64,000 nucleotides of DNA from an uncultured Candidatus Peribacteria bacterium. Its GTDB lineage: Bacteria; Patescibacteriota; Gracilibacteria; Absconditabacterales; Absconditicoccaceae. Position 1 is the stretch's first letter. Every line of letters begins with the position of its first letter. Location: contig CAYOFF010000001.1 of assembly GCA_964403415.1 (NCBI GenBank), forward strand, positions 69,834 to 133,833, given 5' to 3'. This document shows positions 41,371-57,194 of the stretch, piece by piece. The notes beneath the pieces were generated by a model, which saw only the letters and a list, made by a program, of their open reading frames with translations, had not been told where the DNA came from and ran no database searches. The translations under genes and the position numbers were made by a program.

Positions 41371-43785
41371 CTAATTATCTATAGCATCACGGGCCGTCTC
41401 TAAATAGTGATCTATTTTCTTAATAATTTCAAATACATCCTCTTGAGTTAATGCTCCACGATCTGGAGATAATACTTTGTCCTTCGTTTGTTGAGCCTTG
41501 AGAGAGGATGCTTTTGCATATATCGTCGCTGTTTCATTGTTTATAATGCTTGCCTCGTAGAGAATGTCACGAGCTTCTTCCTGCTGTTTTTCAAGTTTGA
41601 TCACGAGCTCGTCTCGTGTATAGAGCGACGCCGCGTCAGCTCAAGATACTTCTACTGGATCTCCCCCTATACCTGTTCCATCATTTCATGCATCTTCTCA
41701 TGAAGTCGCCCCATCATCAGGTCACGGTATCTGCTCTCATGTATTTTCTCATGTTCATAGATCTCATCGTCACAACGTGTCATCTCCTGTCGACTCTATC
41801 GCCCCAGATGTTCCTATTATCGGCTCTACATCTCATGTTTGAGTTTTTGAGATTCACAACATATCACGTACAATTGTCAACGGTGAATTCTCCAAAGAGA
41901 ACATTGTTGTGAAAATAACACCCACACCACTTAGGAGAATAAGCAATATCACCAAACGAACCCAAATTGCTTTGGCATGAGATGGTTGCGGTATGACGAT
42001 TTGTTTTCACTCAGTTGCTGTTGCATCCAGTATCCCTTCTATTGTCGTTGGTTTCACAATAGTTGACTTTGGAGTTACGCCTTTTTGAGACTCTTGAGAG
42101 AGATCTTCCTGCGCTTCTGCTGGCTGAGAAAGTGTATCTAAGTCGATGGCTGAAGAATCCTGCATCTCTGGAGTTGAGTTTTCCCTTATTTCTATTTCTT
42201 GCTGAGCACCTGACTCCAATTCTAGTTCAGGCTTTGATCCTAACACTAGTCCCTCCTCTGGTTCGGATTTTGATTCTAACACTAGCTCCTCCCCTGGTTC
42301 AGATTTTTGCTCAACTTCATATGCCTCCTGCGCTTGCCCCTGGATTATCTCTGGAATCTGATTTACACTTAATTCTTGTTCATCTACTGCTTCTTGCTCA
42401 CTAGTTGCATCATTCTCCGTTTGTTTTTCACTGTTTACTTCCAGATCATACTGTAAATCACCATGAAATAGTGGATCCTGACTGGATTTGTCATCAAATT
42501 GATTTGACAAAACCTCTCCCTCTGCAGACTGTGACGTCTCACCTCATCTGTATTCTATACTTTCTTCTTGTTGTACCGCATCCTGATTGATTCCTCCTCA
42601 TCGATAAGAAGCGAGATTATCCTGTAGATTATCTTGTGTTCATGATTCATCCACAACCTCTGGCATTTCGTTGGAAAAATCATCTGACAAGGACTCATCA
42701 TCGGAGGTTTCTGAGGCTTGATCAGCCTCGTCCAAAGCTTCTGCTACCGGTAAATCCTCCTGCTCCTCCTCCTGTACCTCCTCCTGTACCTCCTCCTGCG
42801 CTTCCTCCTGTACTTCCTTATCTTCGACAACCAACTCTTCTTGTACCTCTTGTTTTTGCTGAGATTCCTCTTGTTCTTCTTGCTTTTGCTGTATCCATCC
42901 CTCTGGAGCATCTGGCTCTGTTGTCTCTGACGGGGTATCCTGTTCTTTTCTTATTTCTGGCAGTTCACTCTCTGCCAATATTGATTCCGTAGTCTCCTCG
43001 CTCGCCGCCTCTAATGGATGTGACTGTTGTTCTCACTCGCTACTAAACTCACCTACTACTAGAGGATCTGACAAATTCGTACCTCATCACTTTCCGTGAC
43101 GAATCGCATTCATTTGCTTCGTCAATTCTTCTGGAGATCAAATCACCCAAACATCTAACGGATCACCGTCTGGCGACTTTAGTGTTGGATGCTCCATCAT
43201 TTTAAGCTCTACATCGTAGATATGGTTTCCATTTTTCACATATGGTTTCCCTTTCTCTCTATTTGCAGGGTCTGGTCGTAGATCTACAGGAGCATGAGCT
43301 ACATCAAATACTAGCTTGTGATCACCCTTTGCATGCGGAACAACTGCATAGACTCCGGGGACTTGACGCAGATTCACTCCATCTGCAGAATATATACCAT
43401 CTTGGACTTTTGTATATTCCGTTTGTTGTTTCTTCTCTCTTTTCTTTTGTTCAATATATGCATGAATATCATCAATACCCTTAATCGTCGGATCCATAAC
43501 ATGGGCAACAGAACTTGCTTTTTCCTGAAATTTTTGTTGTAGACTTTCTGATAATGGGACTTCTTTTTTTTCTTTCTGAATTACAGGGTTTTCCGACTCG
43601 TTCGTATTTTTTTCCGAGACAGTCGATCACTCTTGAATCTCATCCAAATTTACAGAAGAAAATATGTTCACAAAAGCATCTCAAGCAGCATCTACTTGAT
43701 TTTTATTGTTTTCCCCCGTTTCCGTATCTCCTCCACTAGCTCATGGGACGGGAGGTATAGGTCCTGCATTTTTGGCGTCTGTCAT
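41371..43785 (-). CDS. Hypothetical 804-aa protein with a long acidic Glu/Gln-rich low-complexity centre and one TM helix
   Basis: Track fragments 43497, 42978, 42510 and 41604 share frame 0; gaps checked. ATG 43785-43783, TAG 41373-41371. Repeats such as EEVQEEVQEEEQED. TM helix IWVRLVILLILLSGVGVIFTTMF. Confidence 0.65.
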
Positions 43786-43910
43786 GTAACACGTGATCAA
43801 ACAAAATGTACCAAAAGTATAGGCAAATAGTGGGGTTTTGTCAAATTCTTTCTTCTAATATTCAGTCTTTCTCGGTTGCTTTTTTTGACAAAAACGTGAT
43901 AGATGTTCTC

Positions 43911-44918
43911 ATGACACTCTTTCAGTCACCTCTTCGAAAAACTATTTCACAGGAGATTTACAAAAAATCTCTTTTTGAGGTTTCTATTGAAGGAAAACCC
44001 TATCGAGGTGTGGCAAAATTCATGAAACGTTTTGGCGCTAGAACCGCTCGATATATGGTTCATGGGGTAGAATTCTCCAATACCGACGCATTTTCTCCCG
44101 ACCTAGCAGAAAGTATAGCTAGACTCAAAAGAGACCTCAATCATCACTGGTGAGATATCTTTGTGCAGTTAGGTATAACAAATATCCTAGACGCTCGCCC
44201 TACAGCCGACGTAAAAATAGCAGAAAATAGCCAAGAAATTACAAAAAAACACATGTATCAAGCATCTGATCTTCTTCAACGATATAGTATGCGCCCCTCT
44301 TGGAGGGAACATATGCCACAGGCCACTATTATTTTTGATCTTTCTCAGCCCGTACAATACATCTTGGATGGATTTTCTACTTCCGGAAAAAGATTTCTAA
44401 AAAAGGCCGAGAAAGAGGATCTTTCATTCGAGATTGCATCCAACCCAAGCGATCGAGAGGCATTCTATAGAATACGGTACACTATGTCATTTGACAAAGA
44501 CTTCAACATTATCTCACTTGAGACCTTCATGCAGCTTATGAACTATCTTGAGAGTACACATCAGGGAGCATTATTCCTCTGCAAGAAGAATTGAGCGATT
44601 GTCAGTGGCAGTCTCTGCCTCTTTTTGGGCGCATCTCTTATTTACCTCTACGGAGCCACAAATAGGCAATGGGGGGATATTTGATGACACTACTGGCTTA
44701 CTACCAAGATTATAGAATGGGCCCATGATCAGCATGTTTATACCAGTTTTGATCTTCTTGGGGTCTCAGCAGCACGAGATCATGAGCATCACCACCTTCA
44801 GTGAGTTACTAGATTTAAACAGGCGTTTGGAGGGACAACCGTCTCGTATGTTGGGAATTACGACATTATCTTCAACCCACTTCTCTATACGTGATTCTCC
44901 CGATGGAAGAAAAAATAA
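43911..44918 (+). CDS. FemAB-family peptidoglycan interpeptide-bridge aminoacyltransferase (FemX/MurM-like)
   Basis: MTLFQSPL..., ...LIYLYGATN..., L[G]VTRFKQAFGG. 335 aa from ATG 43911, TAA at 44916-44918. An upstream in-frame ATG at 43806 is possible but looks non-coding. Confidence 0.7.
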
Positions 44919-45028
44919 ATCCACATTGCGAACCGCCATCAACACGCCGCGCATACTATTCTTTATAAGACAATATATTATCTAATAATTCTATCACTCC
45001 GTGATAACGATAGGTTTGCGGATTTTAC

Positions 45029-45056
45029 TGTAAAAAAATTGTAAAAAAATTGTAAA
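45029..45056 (-). repeat. Three 11-bp-spaced copies of the TTTACA motif in inverted orientation
   Basis: TGTAAA starts at 45029, 45040 and 45051 (CTGTAAAAAAATTGTAAAAAAATTGTAAAAGG). Confidence 0.8.
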
Positions 45057-45180
45057 AGGATATTACGTGGTCATCCAAAGGGCCAAAAGGTCTCAAACCC
45101 CAAAAACAAAACCACCCAAACCACTCATCCATTGTCACCTACCAAGGGACAAGGAACGAAATAAATCTATGGAAGACGGT

Positions 45181-45231
45181 TGAGGGATAACAAAGATCTA
45201 TAAACAGCTTATATATCTTTGTTATCCCTCA
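45181..45231. repeat. Perfect 17-bp inverted repeat with a 17-nt spacer
   Basis: TGAGGGATAACAAAGAT (45181-45197) and ATCTTTGTTATCCCTCA (45215-45231). Confidence 0.9.
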
Positions 45232-45251
45232 CGGCAGGGTATCCTTGCATA

Positions 45252-45288
45252 AGTCTTCCAACTCAATTGGAAGACTGTACGCATGCGT
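45252..45288. repeat. 10-bp-stem hairpin followed by a 10-bp perfect palindrome
   Basis: AGTCTTCCAA-CTCAA-TTGGAAGACT (45252-45276), then ACGCATGCGT (45279-45288). Confidence 0.9.
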
Positions 45289-45500
45289 TACAGTCTTTTC
45301 TTTTTACACTTTTTTTACAAAGACTTTACAGCGCTTTACATATTTTTTACAGCTGCTTTACATTTTCTTTACAGTATTTTACATTTTTTATACACTCACT
45401 TTACAGTAACTTTACAAAAAAATATATACTTTACAGTATTTTTACAATTATTTTACATTTCTTTTACACCTCTTTACAGAAATTTTACAGCAGCTTTACA
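45287..45500 (+). repeat. Array of 18 TTTACA(G/A/T/C) motifs, plus one degenerate copy, phased at 10-11 bp
   Basis: Motif starts: 45303, 45314, 45325, 45335, 45346, 45357, 45368, 45378, 45389 (TATACA), 45400, 45411, 45430, 45441, 45452, 45463, 45473, 45484, 45495; GTTACA at about 45288. Spacings: 11,11,10,11,11,11,10,11,11,11,19,11,11,11,10,11,11. Confidence 0.9.
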
Positions 45501-45554
45501 ATAAAGCTTTTTATGTCCTCTCTTCCGCCCCTTCTTTGTATATACTTACTCTAT

Positions 45555-46655
45555 CTAATTGACTAATAACTCTTTCATAATTTTTGTATACGTCTTTTTT
45601 ATTGGATCTTGAGATGAGATATTTCGACTTTTTTTATACCCAATATGCTGTTCCAAAAATCTTTCTATACCCTTCTCCATATCATTGTTTTGCTCTATAC
45701 AAACATCTCAGTAGTGCACTTCGTACCGTCTTGCGTTTCACAGTTGGTGGTTTCCTCCTGTAAATGGTGTTGGAACAATGCAGGATTTTATGCCAAACAG
45801 TTTTTGTTCCGCCAGAGAGGTCACCCCTCCGCGCGTAATAGCTATGTCTGCATTTTTGTACAACATACCCATTTTTGCCGGTGAAAGATACTCATAAGTG
45901 AAAACATTTGGATATTCCGAAAAAACTTCTTTGTATTGCATATTTTTGGTCCCCAGTGTTACTATAAACTGGAAGTTGTGAGACCATACTCATGTCCTGT
46001 CCCATATTTTCTTCATAGCATCAAAGAGGGCGCCAGCTCATTGGGATCATCAAAGAACAAGTACAACTGTTTTATCTGTCTTTTTAGGTTCAACAAAATC
46101 TCTCGGCGGGTCCTCCCACAGTTGAAGAGAAAGTATTTGTCCCACATGCTCGCTCTTTCACTTATATTTCTCTCACTGGTGTTCAAATCATGTAAATACC
46201 TTTGATGCAAACGGATATAATAGGCGATTTGCCAAGCCTGGAAACAGATCGGACTCATGAATAACAACTTTTATTCAAAGCACCCATGCCGCAAAACACA
46301 CAGGAAATGAAACATATCCTCATTTACCGAAGACAACATCTATTTTATGTCTCCTGAGCTCCCATCGTGCGCATCCAATACCCATACCCACGTTTAACAT
46401 ATCTTTTATATTCTGCCACATCACCCTTAGTCCCCAGTATCTCCTTATTTTACCTACTGGAATCTCGACAAAATGCACCCATGAAATCTCCTCGCAAGCC
46501 TTTTGTTCTAGGGAGTTTCCCTCCCCAAACCAGTATATGTCATTGCATTTTGACATAAATTCATTAGAGGTATGCACGTAGTTGAGAAGTGAGACAAGCG
46601 GCGTTATATGCCCACCAGATCCTCATCAGGCTACCGCTATCGTTGTTTTTCTCAT
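45555..46655 (-). CDS. murG: UDP-GlcNAc:MurNAc-(pentapeptide)-PP-undecaprenol GlcNAc transferase
   Basis: IAVA[G][G]GSGGHITPL, [G]GYVSFPVCFAA, IHESDLFPGLANR, VLVL[G][G]SQ[G]AG, ITRGGVTSLAEQ, GGNHQL[G]NA. ATG 46655-46653, TAG 45557-45555, 366 aa. Confidence 0.9.
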
Positions 46656-46701
46656 TATTATACCGTCTCTACTAAAAACCTTTTGCCTGCATACCTATTT
46701 T

Positions 46702-46779
46702 GGTCGATTAGCTCAGCTGGTCGAGAGCGCCACATTGACATTGTGGAGGTCAGTGGTTCGAATCCACTATCGACCACCA
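46702..46779 (+). tRNA. tRNA-Val (anticodon GAC)
   Basis: GGTCGATTAGCTCAGCTGGTCGAGAGCGCCACATTGACATTGTGGAGGTCAGTGGTTCGAATCCACTATCGACCACCA. Full cloverleaf with encoded CCA. Confidence 0.9.
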
Positions 46780-46922
46780 GATTAGCATCAAAGCCCTATT
46801 TCAACATATTTTCTTCTCATTTCTTTAGGCAAACATCAGCGCCTTGTCTCTCCGTAGGGGCAATTTTTTTGTGGGAGCATTCTGCGCGCATTCTATCTAA
46901 GATCATTACAAAGACAACGCCT

Positions 46923-47624
46923 ATGTGAGCCCTCTCTTCTATTTTTGATACCATTTTTCCTATACAGTGCGTTTTGTGCCAAGATTATGGGGCATATCTT
47001 TGTCGTAGCTGCAAAAAAACACTAGAAGTCCATCCGCCCCTCTGTCCCATTTGCTATCACCCCTCCCCTCATTACCAGACATGTTCTAAATGCATGCGTC
47101 AAAATCCCCTCAAATGATGCATTATAGGATTTTGATATTGATGAGCTATCAAAAAAATGATTCACCTCCTCAAATATAAGCATATCTCTACCGCCTCCAT
47201 CTTTCTTGCAAATCAACTTGCCTGGCATCTTCGCTCCCATCCTCTTATCTCTACCAAAGACACTCCTGTTCTTCTCTGCCCTATACCAACCCACCGACGA
47301 AAAGTTCTTCTCAAAAGAGGCTACGATCACATAAAACTTCTCACTAAGCAAATTTCTATAGATTGTACCATTCCAGAACAATTTCTCCTTACAAAATCTC
47401 GCTTTACTCGTAGCCAGGTAGGGCTTTCTAGGCAGCAAAGATATCATAATCTCTCCTGATCGTTTCAAATTACCTCTTGAACATCTCTCATTTGAAATGA
47501 GACAATTCTTCTTGTAGACGACCTCTTCACCAGTTGAGCAACACTTGTCACAGCAGCGAATACACTACTCGCTCGTCGACCTACTTTACAAATATGGGGC
47601 CTTGTTGTGAGTAGGCACATATAA
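46923..47624 (+). CDS. comFC: ComF-family protein (ComFC-type phosphoribosyltransferase with N-terminal zinc finger)
   Basis: CVLCQDYGAYLCRSC...CPICYHP...CSKC; PIPTHRRKVLLKRGYDH; SQVGLSRQQR; PRT motif ILLVDDLFTS[G]ATL. TAA at 47622-47624. Confidence 0.8.
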
Positions 47625-47695
47625 TAAAACTGAGGATTTTTTTCTTTCTATCAAGCCATTTGTACACTTTTGTCCATCTCTTGTCTACATCGTCT

Positions 47696-47744
47696 TTTAC
47701 AGTTTTTTTACAGAAATTTTACAGCGTTTTACAGTTTTTTTACA
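47696..47744 (+). repeat. Second phased TTTACA array (5 copies, same orientation as the large array)
   Basis: TTTACA starts at 47696, 47707, 47718, 47728 and 47739 (spacing 11,11,10,11). Degenerate TTGTACA/TTGTCCA/TTGTCTA copies at about 47660-47690 keep the same period. Confidence 0.85.
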
Positions 47745-47752
47745 CTTTAAGG

Positions 47753-48961
47753 TTACGCTATCACATTTGGCAACACTTGAATGACTACGGATTTGGAATA
47801 GAATCTTCCAACCAATGATACCATGTAATCGCTTGGCACAAGATGGATCTTGACACATTTTTGAAGGATTCTTCTAATAACACACAGTGATTGATATTTA
47901 CACCATAGTATTGGACGTCGATATCGCGATTTTTTTGATGCCCCGAAAAACCCTTCAAATCAAACCGGGTAATGCAATTGATCCTCTTCATATACTAGAG
48001 AGGGGAATGGATGAAATAATCAAAAATCATGATACATGATCATATGTATGCATTTTCTGCGTGTACCAACCCATAAGGGCAGCCAACCCAAATACCTATG
48101 AACACTGTTTCGGTAAATAATATCTGGTCTACAACGAACTATTTCGAGATATAGGCGCAGAGCCTCCCAAACATTACATACTGTTGCAAGCAGCCCAATC
48201 TTTCTCACACCCCCCCCATATAGATTCCCACCAAAGATACTTGCCTCGTATCCTTCCTCATTTAACATATCTTTTACTTCGTAGACATGACTTTCAATTC
48301 ATGCTATTTTTGTTGCATAGTCCGAAACGATAAGTATGCGATTAATATCATTAACAGATTTGGAAGCACTCAAAATGTTTGAAAAATTGGCTTTCCGCTC
48401 TTTACGCGAGTAGCGTAGAGCACGTTGTTGCGCTAGTTGGCGGTATCTCAGCGCCATGTCATCATCAAATGCTTCTAGAAAATATTTAATGGCTACAAAA
48501 AGCCTTTCTTCATGTGTAAGACCCTTATAGTTGTCGATAGAGCAGTGTTCGTCCAACAAAAACTGCTGTGTTCATCCTTTATTGAATCCCAACACAGGAA
48601 TACCATGCCGCAAAGCCTCTCCTGAGTTTAGGCCAAATGTTTCCAGGAATAACGATGGCATCAGTACTATATCAACCTTTTCACGCTTCATAAATGTAAA
48701 AACATCTCACTTTGGTTGCATACCGTAATACGAAACCTGGAATGATTTTGTCTCCATAATACATAATTCAAGTTCTTTTCTATATGATCAATCAGAGAAA
48801 AAACTGAAGCGGCAGCGATCTTCTCACTCCTTAGCAAGACGCTTTATGACTGAAAGCACTAGATCTATACCTTTTTCTTTTTCTAGTCTACTATAAAACA
48901 AAAAATGCACCTGTTTTCACATAAGCCTTAAGACGAGTAAAATCCAAGTACAAATTCTCAT
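47753..48961 (-). CDS. GT4/GT-B glycosyltransferase with swapped domain order: C-terminal Glycos_transf_1-type lobe first, N-terminal lobe second
   Basis: One frame, with TGA only, from ATG 48961 (alternative 48922) to TAA 47755-47753. The first half contains LEKEKGIDLVLSVIKRL...VDIVLMPSLFLETFGLNSGEALRHGIPVL (C-lobe signature). The second half begins NRILIVSDYATKIA[G]IESHVYEVKDMLNEEGYE (typical GT4 N-terminus) and ends ...KIHLVPSDYM.... Confidence 0.6.
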
Positions 48962-49599
48962 TTTAGTGGCAATTTTTCTTGCTCCACCAACACAAGCATC
49001 TCCTCTGCTGAGCCCTGTATTTTTTGTTCAAACATCTTGGAAAGCTCTCTGTGTACAACAATCTTTCCTGTGTACCCTATAGCCAAAAGCTCCTGAAATG
49101 TTTTTTTAACTCTATGTACGGACTCGTAGACAAACACCGGATGCTCATTATTCATTATTCGCTCAAAGAAGCTTTTTCTTCATTTTTTTGCTGGAACAAA
49201 TCCTCCAAACGTAAATATTGAGGTATCACAGGGTGTCCCGACAATAGCAGGTATAAGGGCATTTGCTCATGGTAGTATTTCAAATGGTAGTCAAGATTCT
49301 CGAGCTAGCTTGATGAGCATTTTTCATGGGTCGGAAAGTCATGGAGTTCACGCCTCAGAAATAACGCCACATGATGTCTTTTCGATACACGACACATAAA
49401 AGGCCAATGAGCGATCGTCACTATGACTTGTTAGTGCATAGAATTTTTTATCTTGATAGGGGATATCATACATACGAAACAAATTTTTTACCGTTCTTGT
49501 GTCTTCACAAAAGAATACGTCTAGCTCACGCAAAAGCCTTAACGCCCTCAAGGTAATATCCTCTTTATTGCCAATTGGCGTAGGAATAAACGAGAGCAT
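48928..49599 (-). CDS. rsmI: 16S rRNA (cytidine1402-2'-O)-methyltransferase
   Basis: LSFIPTPIGNKEDITLRALRLL...FCEDTR, ISEA[G]TP[G]LSDP[G], ILP[G]ANAL, FTFGGFVPAKK. ATG 49599-49597. TAA at 48930-48928 after reading through the TGA at 48958. Confidence 0.85.
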
Positions 49600-49648
49600 A
49601 GATTGCCATTATGTGTTGCTAAAGGGTCGCCGCACACCAAAATGTACT

Positions 49649-49722
49649 AGGCACCGATGGGATTCGAACCCATGAACCGAGGTTTTGCAGACCTGTCCGT
49701 TAGACCACTCCGACACGGTGCC
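49649..49722 (-). tRNA. tRNA-Cys (anticodon GCA)
   Basis: Minus strand reads GGCACCGTGTCGGAGTGGTCTAACGGACAGGTCTGCAAAACCTCGGTTCATGGGTTCGAATCCCATCGGTGCCT. CCA is not encoded. One C-C mismatch at the base of the anticodon stem. Confidence 0.8.
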
Positions 49723-49852
49723 ATGGCTTCCACTATAGATATTTACTATGTATATGCAACATACAGCATCACATTTCCTCGCATCCACAATCAATAACTA
49801 TCATAACAACATCTTCTTAAGACATGTCTAGATATCTAGATAATTGGTATAC

Positions 49853-50734
49853 CTAAAGATCACTTCGCAAATACTCTGGATAAACTCACTCCGCCACAAG
49901 TTTTGCGATCAAAGCCTCTACAAATGGCTTATCTTCCTTATATGTCACTCCGCATCGAATATCCTTACTCACCAAGACATCACATTGCACATCTCCTCTG
50001 TTGATAAGTGTGTCAATTACTGTTGGAATAAAGAACTCTTGAGAAGATCCTCATTGAATCCCCGCCAAAAACTCTTGGAACTGCTCTTCTAGATGAGCGA
50101 ATAAGGCTGGGTGACATCATCGGAAATTCATTGAAACAATTTCATCATCTGCAAACATAACCCCCTCCTCATCTCTTATTATTCCGTCGTCATCGCGCTT
50201 AATTTTTAAACATTCTTTTACTGAAGCGAGTATCATGGATCACTGCGTTGAATCACCGATATGACATACTCACCTATTTACCGTGCCCCCTTCTGACAAA
50301 GTATTTTTGAGTGTATATCCTACCATACACATATGATGTTCATCGACTGTCATTAGTTTTTGAGCTATTTGTCTGAATCCATCTACTCCATAATAATCGT
50401 CTGCATTAATAACAGCAAACGGCTCAGATATAACATCTTTTGCGCACAAAATAGCGTGTCCTGTCCCCCATGGCTTGGTGCGTCATTCGGGAATCTGTTG
50501 AAACACATACTGCACCTCCAAAAGACGCGCAAATGTCTCATGAAACCTCTCCTTAAACTCTTGTGCGAATTCCTCACGGATAATAAATACAACCTTCCCA
50601 AATCATGCTCTTACTGCATCATAAACCGCATACTCAAGTAGCGTCTCTCCATGGGGTCAAAACGTATCTAGTTGTTTTATTCATCCATAACGGCTCCCCA
50701 TTCATGCCGCTAAAATTAGTAGCGTAGGCTTCAT
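49853..50734 (-). CDS. Sugar-phosphate nucleotidyltransferase (NTP_transferase fold)
   Basis: MKPTLLILAA[G]MGSRY[G][G]IKQLD (G-rich NTP loop), KPWGTGHAI, FAVINADDYYG. ATG 50734-50732, TAG 49855-49853; all lines checked. Confidence 0.7.
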
Positions 50735-55912: not shown

Positions 55913-56689
55913 ACTATAAGACAGTAGCTTTTCCGTCGAATACTCCACATGAGATAAAGCGCTATATAATTCTAAAAATCATGCACCTAAATTTCACATG
56001 TATTCTACCTTATCTCATCCTTTGTTTCATGTGTCTTGTATACATTTTCTTATGTAATTCCTTAATGAAACACTACTATCTGTATTAGTCTTGTCTATGA
56101 CATATGGTATCTTGAGCCATTCTACGCAGTCCATGATAACATGTTTTTGGAGTCTCAGTAATGGACGATAGTGTATATATCATTTCTTTTTTTGGAACAT
56201 TCTCATGTTTTGCATTCACAAACGCGAAGCTCAACGCAAAAGATGTAATAGCGTTGTCTCAATACGGTCATCCAAATGATGTCATGTACAAATAACCGTA
56301 TTTTCTCCTAATCTTTTGGCAATAGACTCCAAAAAACAATACCTACTCTCCCTTAATCACGCCTCATTCTCTATTCATTTGAAGCGACACGCTCAAATAT
56401 ACTGCATTCCCTGAGCACAATTTCTTACTAGAAGCTCATCATCTCAGGCTTCTTCTCTCACGTTGTGATGATAGTGTACAACAAAAAGTTTTGATAGATC
56501 ACCACTTCTTTTCTCTACAAAACTTCTCAATATCCATAACAAAAACATACTATCTGCTCCACCAGAGACCGCAACTATAATATTTTTCTCTATAATTCTG
56601 TATGTATCACATAATTCCCATATCCTCTCACAGAGGTTGGATATGCTCAGATTGTTTTTTGTGGTGGTATCAGTATTATTTGTTATCAT
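55913..56689 (-). CDS. tilS: tRNA(Ile)-lysidine synthase (short form, PP-loop domain)
   Basis: PP-loop IIVAVSGGADSMFLL, VVHYHHNVRE, T[G]HHLDDRIETTLLHLLR[G], YRPLLRL, DKTNTD...LRNYIR. TAG at 55915-55913. Confidence 0.8.
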
Positions 56690-56708
56690 TTATTGTCAAT
56701 AGCATCAA

Positions 56709-57194
56709 ATGAAAGATTATAAATTCTCTATAAAAGTCTCTGATCTTTTGCGCCATCCTTGAACAACTGATACCCTACAGTTACATAACAAATTTTCAAC
56801 AATTCTTCCACTAATTGAGGTCCCTTGAATACAAGCTATTGTAGAACTTGTATGATTAGACAACAAAACAGTGCTTCTTACCATCGTTTCTGCATCATGT
56901 ACTGTTTGATCTACCTGCGATAGGTGTGGCACAGAATTTCAAGAAACCCTTTCTGTAAGCTCAATTATCGTGAAATGCTTTTTGGAAGAGGAAAGTAGTC
57001 AAAATTCTTTTGAATGAGATGATATTATTGTCATATCCAAAAAAGATGAAACCATAGATATTGAGCATGTTATTGTTGAGGCTTTAGTTCTCCAAAAAAG
57101 TGTTAAAAGTTTGTGTAGTGAGTGTCAAGCTGTGTCTACTAATGATAGTGATGATGAAGCCGAAACCACGTGAGTAATAAAACGAGTAGAGTAA
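56709..57194 (+). CDS. YceD/DUF177 family protein
   Basis: 161 aa with paired Cys motifs TCDRCGTEF and LCSECQA and an acidic tail. TAA at 57192-57194. Confidence 0.6.

Follow-up and report, generated by a model that had tools for sequence, protein, structure and literature searches.

The window, i.e., the whole 64,000-nt stretch of DNA analysed here, contains a row of short direct repeats (hereafter the second array) in the gap between the convergent genes comFC and a GT4 glycosyltransferase gene, and two sister arrays of the same repeat lie together with a small RNA candidate on the other side of murG (Table 1). All coordinates are positions in the window unless a contig is named, and the genome under study is designated G000. 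Reading of the region with translation table 11 gave short open reading frames only, whereas table 25 (TGA = Gly) gave long genes; this assignment is confirmed by the GGxGGH loop of MurG, which is written TGA-TGA-GGA-TCT-GGT-GGG-CAT and corresponds to GGGTGGH in the orthologue of the related genome G041. The comFC gene and its G041 homologue, which occupies the syntenic position, gave a 50% class BLAST match. The gene map bears out the preliminary description in that the main and second arrays, 2.2 kb apart, enclose murG, tRNA-Val, and comFC. Moreover, the two long arrays share a geometry: each occupies a convergent gap without a terminator and directly follows the stop codon of a cell-wall glycosyltransferase gene on the minus strand.

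Table 1. Features of the repeat locus and its neighbourhood, in order along the window.
Feature	Position	Strand	Details
FemAB-like gene	43806-44918	+	
Gap with arrays and small RNA	between FemAB-like gene and murG		636 bp
Three-copy array	45029-45056	-	opposite orientation (TGTAAAAAAAT on +); overlaps small-RNA promoter TTGTAA-N16-TATTAC
Structured small RNA candidate	45064-45302	+	CA-rich 5' part, terminator hairpin and T-run
Main array	45303-45500	+	17 exact TTTACA and one TATACA in two blocks; ends 55 bp past murG stop codon
murG	45555-46655	-	3' end faces main array
tRNA-Val(GAC)	46702-46779	+	inside bracketed segment
comFC	46923-47624	+	double zinc ribbon and phosphoribosyltransferase domain; converges on second array
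Gap between stop codons of convergent comFC (+) and GT4 glycosyltransferase (-)	47625-47752	.	128 bp
Three degenerate copies	47660-47689	+	TTGTACA 47660, TTGTCCA 47670, TGTCTACA 47682
Second array	47696-47744	+	five exact head-to-tail YTTTACA half-sites; mean period 10.75 bp
Weak candidate rightward promoter made by array	47718-47759	+	TTTACA-N17-TACACT (47718-47746) or last TTTACA-N9-TACGCT (47754-47759)
GT4 glycosyltransferase	47753-48961	-	C-lobe (residues 16-137) before N-lobe (221-337), Pfam order
rsmI	beyond GT4 glycosyltransferase		

The motif positions agree with those originally described for the second array: its five exact TTTACA copies start at 47696, 47707, 47718, 47728, and 47739 on the plus strand (spacing 11, 11, 10, and 11 bp) and are oriented like the 17-copy array, with each of the five units consisting of T4-7ACA. 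The three degenerate copies reported upstream also exist, but they had been called in phase and are so only roughly, as their offsets from the 10.75-bp lattice of the perfect copies are -2.8, -3.5, and -1.2 bp, respectively, i.e., 1-3.5 bp off. Across all 25 copies at the locus, the unit logo reads Y-TTTACA-(G>A) with variable spacers, 6-7 of 11 bases being conserved, and the final TTTACA copy of the second array stops 8 bp short of the glycosyltransferase stop codon (47753-47755).

At the RNA level, a terminator scan of 47625-47752 detected no hairpin terminator, the 128-bp gap folded, for either strand, less stably than its shuffles (z +1.8 and +1.4), and an Rfam search returned a tRNA as its sole match, with no riboswitch or structured RNA in the gap. 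The possibility that the gap holds a terminator, a riboswitch, or another structured RNA was rejected on the basis of the missing Rfam match and the folds weaker than shuffles, and the lack of RNA structure on both strands favours a role at the DNA level. As for promoters, the weak rightward candidate made by the array itself has 9 of 12 consensus matches and is directed antisense into the glycosyltransferase gene. Its -10 candidates TACACT and TACGCT are weak, each being constrained by the repeat core or the glycosyltransferase stop codon, and the N9 layout was found again with better -10 hexamers at promoters of relatives. A TATAAT sharing bases with the comFC stop codon (47620-47625) was rejected as a promoter because it is not kept in a second strain.

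Regarding the sister arrays, about half of the main-array units have only T3, TTTACA being invariant, and the main array offers a TTTACA-N18-TACAAT arrangement pointing into murG. The small RNA candidate has a minimum free energy of -79.7 kcal/mol (z = -7.8) and no match in Rfam, and its CAAAAACAAAAC segment is common to G041. An identical 19-mer, TTTACAGAAATTTTACAGC, occurs in both the main and the second arrays (P about 0.01 under a core-preserving null), which, together with the common unit Y-TTTACA-(G/A), agrees with the earlier assignment of both arrays to one repeat family. The shared 19-mer further suggests, from sequence, that part of the second array was copied from the main array. 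Metagenome contigs were also searched with the 19-mer, and the matches other than a contig designated L076 came from unrelated organisms. One of these, contig Ga0209450_10028832 (L085 1960-2700), carries a long array of ~45-bp units around GTGACTGTAAAATTTCTG and shares the 19-mer.

A genome-wide motif scan revealed chains of at least three TTTACA copies in 1.245 Mb only as the 17-, 5-, and 3-copy arrays of this locus, confirming that phased arrays occur at this locus alone and far beyond chance. No TTTACA-N4-5-TTTACA dimers were present outside the locus in 1.245 Mb, nor did the reversed control motif yield any, and a relaxed core gave 13 matches outside the locus vs 37 for the control, i.e., no enrichment. 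In an unbiased 7-mer clustering scan, the locus ranked first among non-coding repeats.

The second strain is represented by the 7.2-kb metagenome contig L076, which is 97.3% identical to window positions 42747-49927 and fully collinear with them. The copy number of all three arrays is unchanged in L076, with no inversion, excision, or indel within the arrays, and since this independent contig carries the same copy number, the second array is not an assembly artefact. Strain differences affected 0 of 28 positions in the three-copy array, 1 of 198 in the main array, and 2 of 95 in the second array (47650-47744), the latter compared with 6 of 33 elsewhere in the gap (p = 0.004). Pooled, the arrays differed at 3 of 275 positions vs 18 of 190 in flanking non-coding DNA (Fisher p = 3e-5); coding DNA differed at ~2.7%, and the higher conservation of the arrays relative to it was not significant (p = 0.12). 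All three array differences were G->A changes at the base right after the core, no core base was changed, and the degenerate copies at 47660-47689 were identical in the second strain. The arrays are under purifying selection, and the few strain differences and intact cores indicate that the second array is real, stable, and under constraint.

Considering that the second array coincides with the end of a glycosyltransferase gene described as permuted, it had been proposed to mark a rearrangement breakpoint, and comparison with related genomes refuted this proposal. In 59 of the 61 family genomes, the glycosyltransferase is C-lobe first and collinear from end to end, with the same end point, so that its lobe order is no local oddity and is, across the genomes compared, ancestral to the family. 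The lobes are separate genes in a few genomes (e.g., G075, G058, G061, and G008), and this, together with the family-wide order, suggests that the gene is an old fusion of two half-genes and not the outcome of a circular permutation event. The gene order in G041 is arrays and small RNA, murG (44% identity), tRNA-Val, comFC, glycosyltransferase, rsmI, tRNA-Cys, and comM; its glycosyltransferase is C-lobe first too and ends at the equivalent position, and the stop codons of its comFC and glycosyltransferase genes adjoin directly (0-bp gap), with no array between them. The two genes are convergent in eight genera, with gaps of -14 to 172 bp, and the second array was not found in the homologous gap of G041, G013, G019, and G010. 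Only the genus g8 has a similar gap, with TTGTCTACA, TTTGACA, and TTTTACA oriented as in G000. The comparison of G007 with G062 in this genus showed an identity mosaic along the locus, so that the conservation of its gap is uninformative. Related loci were also sought with MurG as query, and this search gave no match. Judged by these comparisons, the second array was added where a gene naturally ends and is not a scar. It is thus extremely improbable that the arrays are recombination sites bounding an invertible or excisable murG-tRNA-comFC segment, with the second array marking a break in the glycosyltransferase. Two arrays of one family do bracket a 2.2-kb segment holding a tRNA gene, and the lobe order of the glycosyltransferase is inverted; however, that order is ancestral, the gene order and orientation are unchanged in G041, where murG is 44% identical, and no departure from collinearity is seen along the 7.2 kb of the second strain. 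Furthermore, the array units are direct repeats that have a 6-bp core in common but differ in their spacers, and the annotated neighbouring genes include no recombinase gene. As a separate observation, five TTGACA/TTTACA copies with exact 11-bp spacing lie inside the glycosyltransferase coding sequence of G041 (L046 15567-15616; G041:C1:609566-609615), at the junction of the two lobes (peptide DFDTILTDILQNFDS).

Given the repeat geometry, regulators that could bind such sites were considered. The genome has one receiver-domain protein, which is of the OmpR type (contig C2:33140-33796) and is preceded by a HisKA/HATPase kinase gene just upstream; a domain search of the whole genome gave one Trans_reg_C and one Response_reg match, both in this same protein. 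Its best solved relatives include KdpE (E about 1e-32), it shares 48-50% identity with the regulators of G041 and G003, and its recognition helix DVY(I/M)xxLRKKL is conserved in the regulators with nearby TTTACA in relatives. The KdpE specificity residue R193 corresponds to Asp in the G000 regulator, and the regulator gene has no TTTACA sites and carries a different 16-bp repeat. Four direct repeats of ~16 bp (GTAACATTTTAGGA-like; L015 5078-5140, G000:C2) fill the 50 bp between the kinase stop and the regulator start.

OmpR/PhoB-family operators consist of ~6-bp half-sites arranged as head-to-tail direct repeats 10-11 bp apart, and the second array shows this geometry, with copies on the same strand, one helical turn apart, and a conserved core and 5' pyrimidine. 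Its half-site also matches those shown experimentally for the family, i.e., the TTTACA of KdpE with a 5-bp spacer and the PHO box. The KdpE operator at the Escherichia coli kdpFABC promoter is TTTATA-N5-TTTACA, bound head-to-tail by an OmpR/PhoB winged-helix regulator (PMC3264566), with core and register equal to those found here; KdpE uses one half-site pair upstream of a promoter, whereas the present gap holds 5(+3) copies flanked by the 3' ends of two genes, and no clear promoter. Similarly, the Bacillus PHO box, bound by PhoP~P, is TT(A/T/C)ACA with 11-bp periodicity, 2-8 copies being functional in either orientation to transcription (PMC11870197, citing Eder 1999 and Allenby 2005). The second array resembles it in hexamer and periodicity, but the locus total of 25 copies is higher than any described, and the site is located at a gene 3' end instead of a promoter. 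A PHO regulon was rejected due to the lack of pstS and of boxes outside this locus, since a PstS (PBP_like_2) search gave no match in G000 while 13 of 14 control genomes matched. A MraZ operator was rejected as well, owing to the lack of a MraZ domain in the genome and the position of the arrays at gene 3' ends rather than upstream of a cluster. By repeat geometry and core, the array thus looks like a protein-docking site of the operator type, in line with the preliminary description, and its copy number and gene-end position make it unusual compared with known operators. Taken together, the second array is a genuine, conserved, and locus-specific satellite of a response-regulator-type operator system.

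Related genomes also contain such repeats near regulator genes and promoters. At G073:C2, G046:C63, G003:C29, and G003:C73, OmpR-type regulator genes have TTTACA dimers or trimers no more than ~1 kb away, against a chance expectation, roughly estimated from counts, of ~0.4 such coincidences over ~60 regulator loci. One of these sites reads TTTACA-N5-TTTACA-N9-TATACT ~35 bp upstream of the regulator start codon, and another is a divergent pair with N9-TATAAT. As the regulator is present in 47 of 61 family genomes, phylogenetic profiling of the regulator against the arrays is uninformative. Phased repeats were found at promoters in at least six genera (small RNA, pilin gene, csaB-like gene, and others), with almost no matches for control patterns, and the layout of array and promoter before a CA-rich small RNA recurs in G041, G060, and G003. 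Relatives also use TTGACA and TATACA variants in phase, and triple arrays are present in 11 of 61 family genomes, belonging to 8 of 43 genera. An overlap with, or a position next to, the -35 region of a promoter, as expected of such an operator, is seen in the three-copy array at the small-RNA promoter and in many arrays of relatives, the second array having only the weak TACACT/TACGCT candidates, which face a gene 3' end. In another genome, three TGTAAA copies (L066 250-278; G070:C102) follow the stop codon of a gene for a lysine-rich, histone-H1-like protein at a distance of 13 nt and precede the terminator hairpin of that gene, representing another array at a gene 3' end, like those in G000.

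It is predicted, with about an even chance of being correct, that the second array serves the single OmpR-type regulator of the genome as a satellite operator array poor in promoters. The tandem winged-helix domains of the C2:33140-33796 regulator would bind the five exact and three decayed half-sites on one DNA face, as part of a three-array system at one locus with three copies at the small-RNA promoter, 17 copies past its terminator, and 5(+3) copies at the glycosyltransferase 3' end. The bound regulator would then act as a roadblock to read-through between comFC and the glycosyltransferase gene; also, or instead, it might switch on the weak rightward promoter made by the repeats, which would run antisense into the glycosyltransferase gene, and the main array could act likewise towards murG. 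A remote alternative, i.e., looping to the small-RNA promoter or buffering the regulator for it, would be equally compatible. Because no convincing promoter exists and the convergent gap lacks a terminator, a local effect would most likely concern convergent transcription, and the common geometry of the long arrays at glycosyltransferase 3' ends favours an occupancy-dependent action of this kind. Both the binding of the regulator at the second array and its effect there are inferred.

Chromosomal titration and roadblock sites are known, such as E. coli datA for DnaA and protein roadblocks to RNA polymerase. These resemble the proposed system as promoter-less clusters of binding sites that act by occupancy, either buffering a regulator or stopping polymerase; the analogy is purely functional, as another protein family is involved, and to our knowledge no natural titration or roadblock array of a response regulator has been described. 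Several observations argue against the operator reading, namely the lack of TTTACA at the G000 regulator's own gene, the replacement of KdpE R193 by Asp, the weak -10 candidates as the only ones in the second array, and the atypical situation of a regulator whose sole sites would be 25 half-sites at one locus. Moreover, the arrays do not surpass coding DNA significantly in conservation, and the position of seven of nine G041 arrays within 17 kb of the origin, some in coding sequences, hints at a chromosomal rather than a gene-regulatory role.

Among the other explanations, a purely remote auxiliary operator or sink would have no local target and would raise the local level of the regulator, or titrate it, on behalf of the small-RNA promoter at a distance of 2.6 kb, perhaps through a loop with the main array. 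It could account for the unit type, orientation, and 19-mer common to both arrays, for the lack of a convincing promoter in the second array, and for the absence of the motif elsewhere in the genome, by which all sites would compete for one small regulator pool. This explanation appears unlikely, since a stable loop of 2.2 kb would be long unless further factors assisted, since the 0-bp gap of G041 coexists with small-RNA arrays, indicating that the satellite is dispensable for that promoter, and since the position exactly at a gene 3' end, like that of the main array at murG, suggests a local role. It is also conceivable that the array is protein-independent structural DNA, its five phased T4-7 tracts forming an intrinsically curved segment that serves as an insulator or pause site between the convergent genes. 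A-tracts phased at the helical repeat give a strong planar bend, every unit of the second array has a T-tract of 4-7 at a 10.75-bp period, and no hairpin terminator occupies the gap; nevertheless, such a role is very improbable, because the T3 units in about half of the main array leave TTTACA invariant, indicating selection on the hexamer and not on the T-tract, because ACA and the 5' pyrimidine are conserved where curvature needs neither, and because TTGACA/TATACA variants stay in phase in relatives. Finally, the array might be a functionless by-product, i.e., a main-array piece copied into the gap or expanded by slippage and persisting neutrally. The 19-mer common to the main array (P about 0.01), the array-free homologous gaps of G041, G013, G019, and G010, and the decay of three copies would be consistent with such an origin; its neutral persistence is quite improbable given the 2/95 vs 6/33 strain differences within the same gap with intact cores (p = 0.004), the equal copy number in both strains, and the spacers that differ between units, which speak against a recent slippage product.

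Should the prediction of a satellite operator array for the sole OmpR-type regulator hold, a minimal symbiont-type genome would spend 25 half-sites at one locus on its only two-component regulator, three of them at the promoter of a small RNA and the other 22 in two arrays that are poor in promoters and closely follow the stop codons of two cell-wall glycosyltransferase genes. Such an arrangement of one sensor, one regulator, and one small RNA would constitute an unusually simple and tractable circuit, as well as a natural case of operator arrays located at gene ends and not at promoters, serving as a roadblock, an antisense switch, or a regulator buffer. Two misleading ideas are also removed, namely the array as a rearrangement scar and the permuted glycosyltransferase, the architecture of which is old and family-wide.

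The clustering of arrays by the replication origin in two genera is likewise worth attention. The cumulative GC skew of G000 has a sharp minimum at window ~56.7 kb (56500-56710; contig C1 ~126.4 kb) and a terminus near contig 775 kb, all G000 arrays being 9-12 kb from the minimum, and the unchanged skew slope through 45-48 kb indicates that the arrays are not the origin itself. The dnaA gene, which is on the opposite strand, is 310 kb distant from the skew-defined origin. Neither the locus nor the region at and around that origin contains a canonical cluster of DnaA boxes, and such boxes are not enriched in the window. An oriC/DnaA site was rejected on these grounds (skew minimum 9 kb away, slope unchanged, no DnaA-box cluster, and dnaA 310 kb off). 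For G041, the skew was taken from the whole contig, as the local 36-kb skew is too noisy; its minimum lies at ~620-625 kb, and seven of nine arrays are found at 604-621 kb, with two more on another contig. Three G041 arrays are inside coding sequences, namely those of the glycosyltransferase (the exact 5x11-bp array), tilS, and a surface-protein gene.

A split centromere, also raised in the preliminary description, was not supported. No ParB was found in G000, and ParB_N is absent from 55 of the 61 family genomes, with the few matches weak, so that chromosome segregation in this lineage must use something other than ParABS; triple arrays in only 11 of 61 genomes are, however, not the family's substitute for parS. 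No partition ATPase, actin-like, tubulin-like, or ParR/ParM-like genes were identified among the annotated neighbours, which cover the bracketed genes, those flanking them, and the glycosyltransferase/rsmI side. The parC site of plasmid R1 comprises two clusters of 11-bp direct repeats (5 + 5) flanking a short segment, with curved DNA and one ParR dimer per repeat (PMC2241845), and thus resembles the present locus in having two 11-bp repeat clusters around a segment. In parC, however, the whole 11 bp are conserved and the clusters flank the parMR promoter over 39 bp (PMC2241845), whereas here 6-7 of 11 bases are conserved and the arrays are 2.2 kb apart. A parC/ParR-like type II centromere was rejected because the bracketed genes are murG, tRNA-Val, and comFC, whole-unit conservation is lacking, and 50 of 61 genomes have no arrays.

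Nonetheless, an origin-proximal site of a chromosome-organising or centromere-like kind, at which a protein would organise or segregate the origin region or would couple the regulator to replication as CtrA/MtrA do at origins, could explain the 9-12 kb distance of the G000 arrays from the skew minimum and the position of seven of nine G041 arrays in 17 kb by theirs, some inside coding sequences. The family without ParB (55 of 61 genomes) and the remoteness of dnaA from an origin free of DnaA-box clusters would also fit. Such a role is distinctly unlikely, as arrays are missing from 50 of 61 genomes (35 of 43 genera) even though nearly all of these are likewise without ParB, two further G041 arrays are on another contig, and the arrays of G000 and G041 are not oriented alike with respect to the origin. 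Many arrays of relatives, moreover, have plain promoter layouts, the annotated neighbours include no partition ATPase, actin-like, or tubulin-like gene, and the skew slope runs unchanged through the arrays. A combined version, according to which the TTTACA rows of some genera would be an origin-proximal docking platform for the sole response regulator that doubles as chromosome organiser or replication coupler, with the murG and GT4 arrays as parts of the platform and not gene switches, is improbable. The origin clustering in G000 and G041 may instead reflect conserved synteny of a regulon island.

Some further observations concern the origin regions. The skew minimum of G000 falls at a divergent tilS/yceD pair with a 19-bp intergenic gap. 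DnaA-box-like 9-mers form a loose group at a single place in the genome (contig C1:311941-312510; four on one strand, one of them perfect), ~185 kb from the skew-defined origin. In G041, two 5-copy arrays in opposite orientation (L047 1909-1957 and 6920-6975; G041:C1:615.9 and 620.9 kb) flank a block of tilS, yceD, and a surface-protein gene by the skew minimum; one of them is followed by TATACT on one strand and abuts the ATG of a 70-aa gene on the other, and the second abuts the ATG of a csaB-like gene, positions which suggest near-leaderless transcripts.
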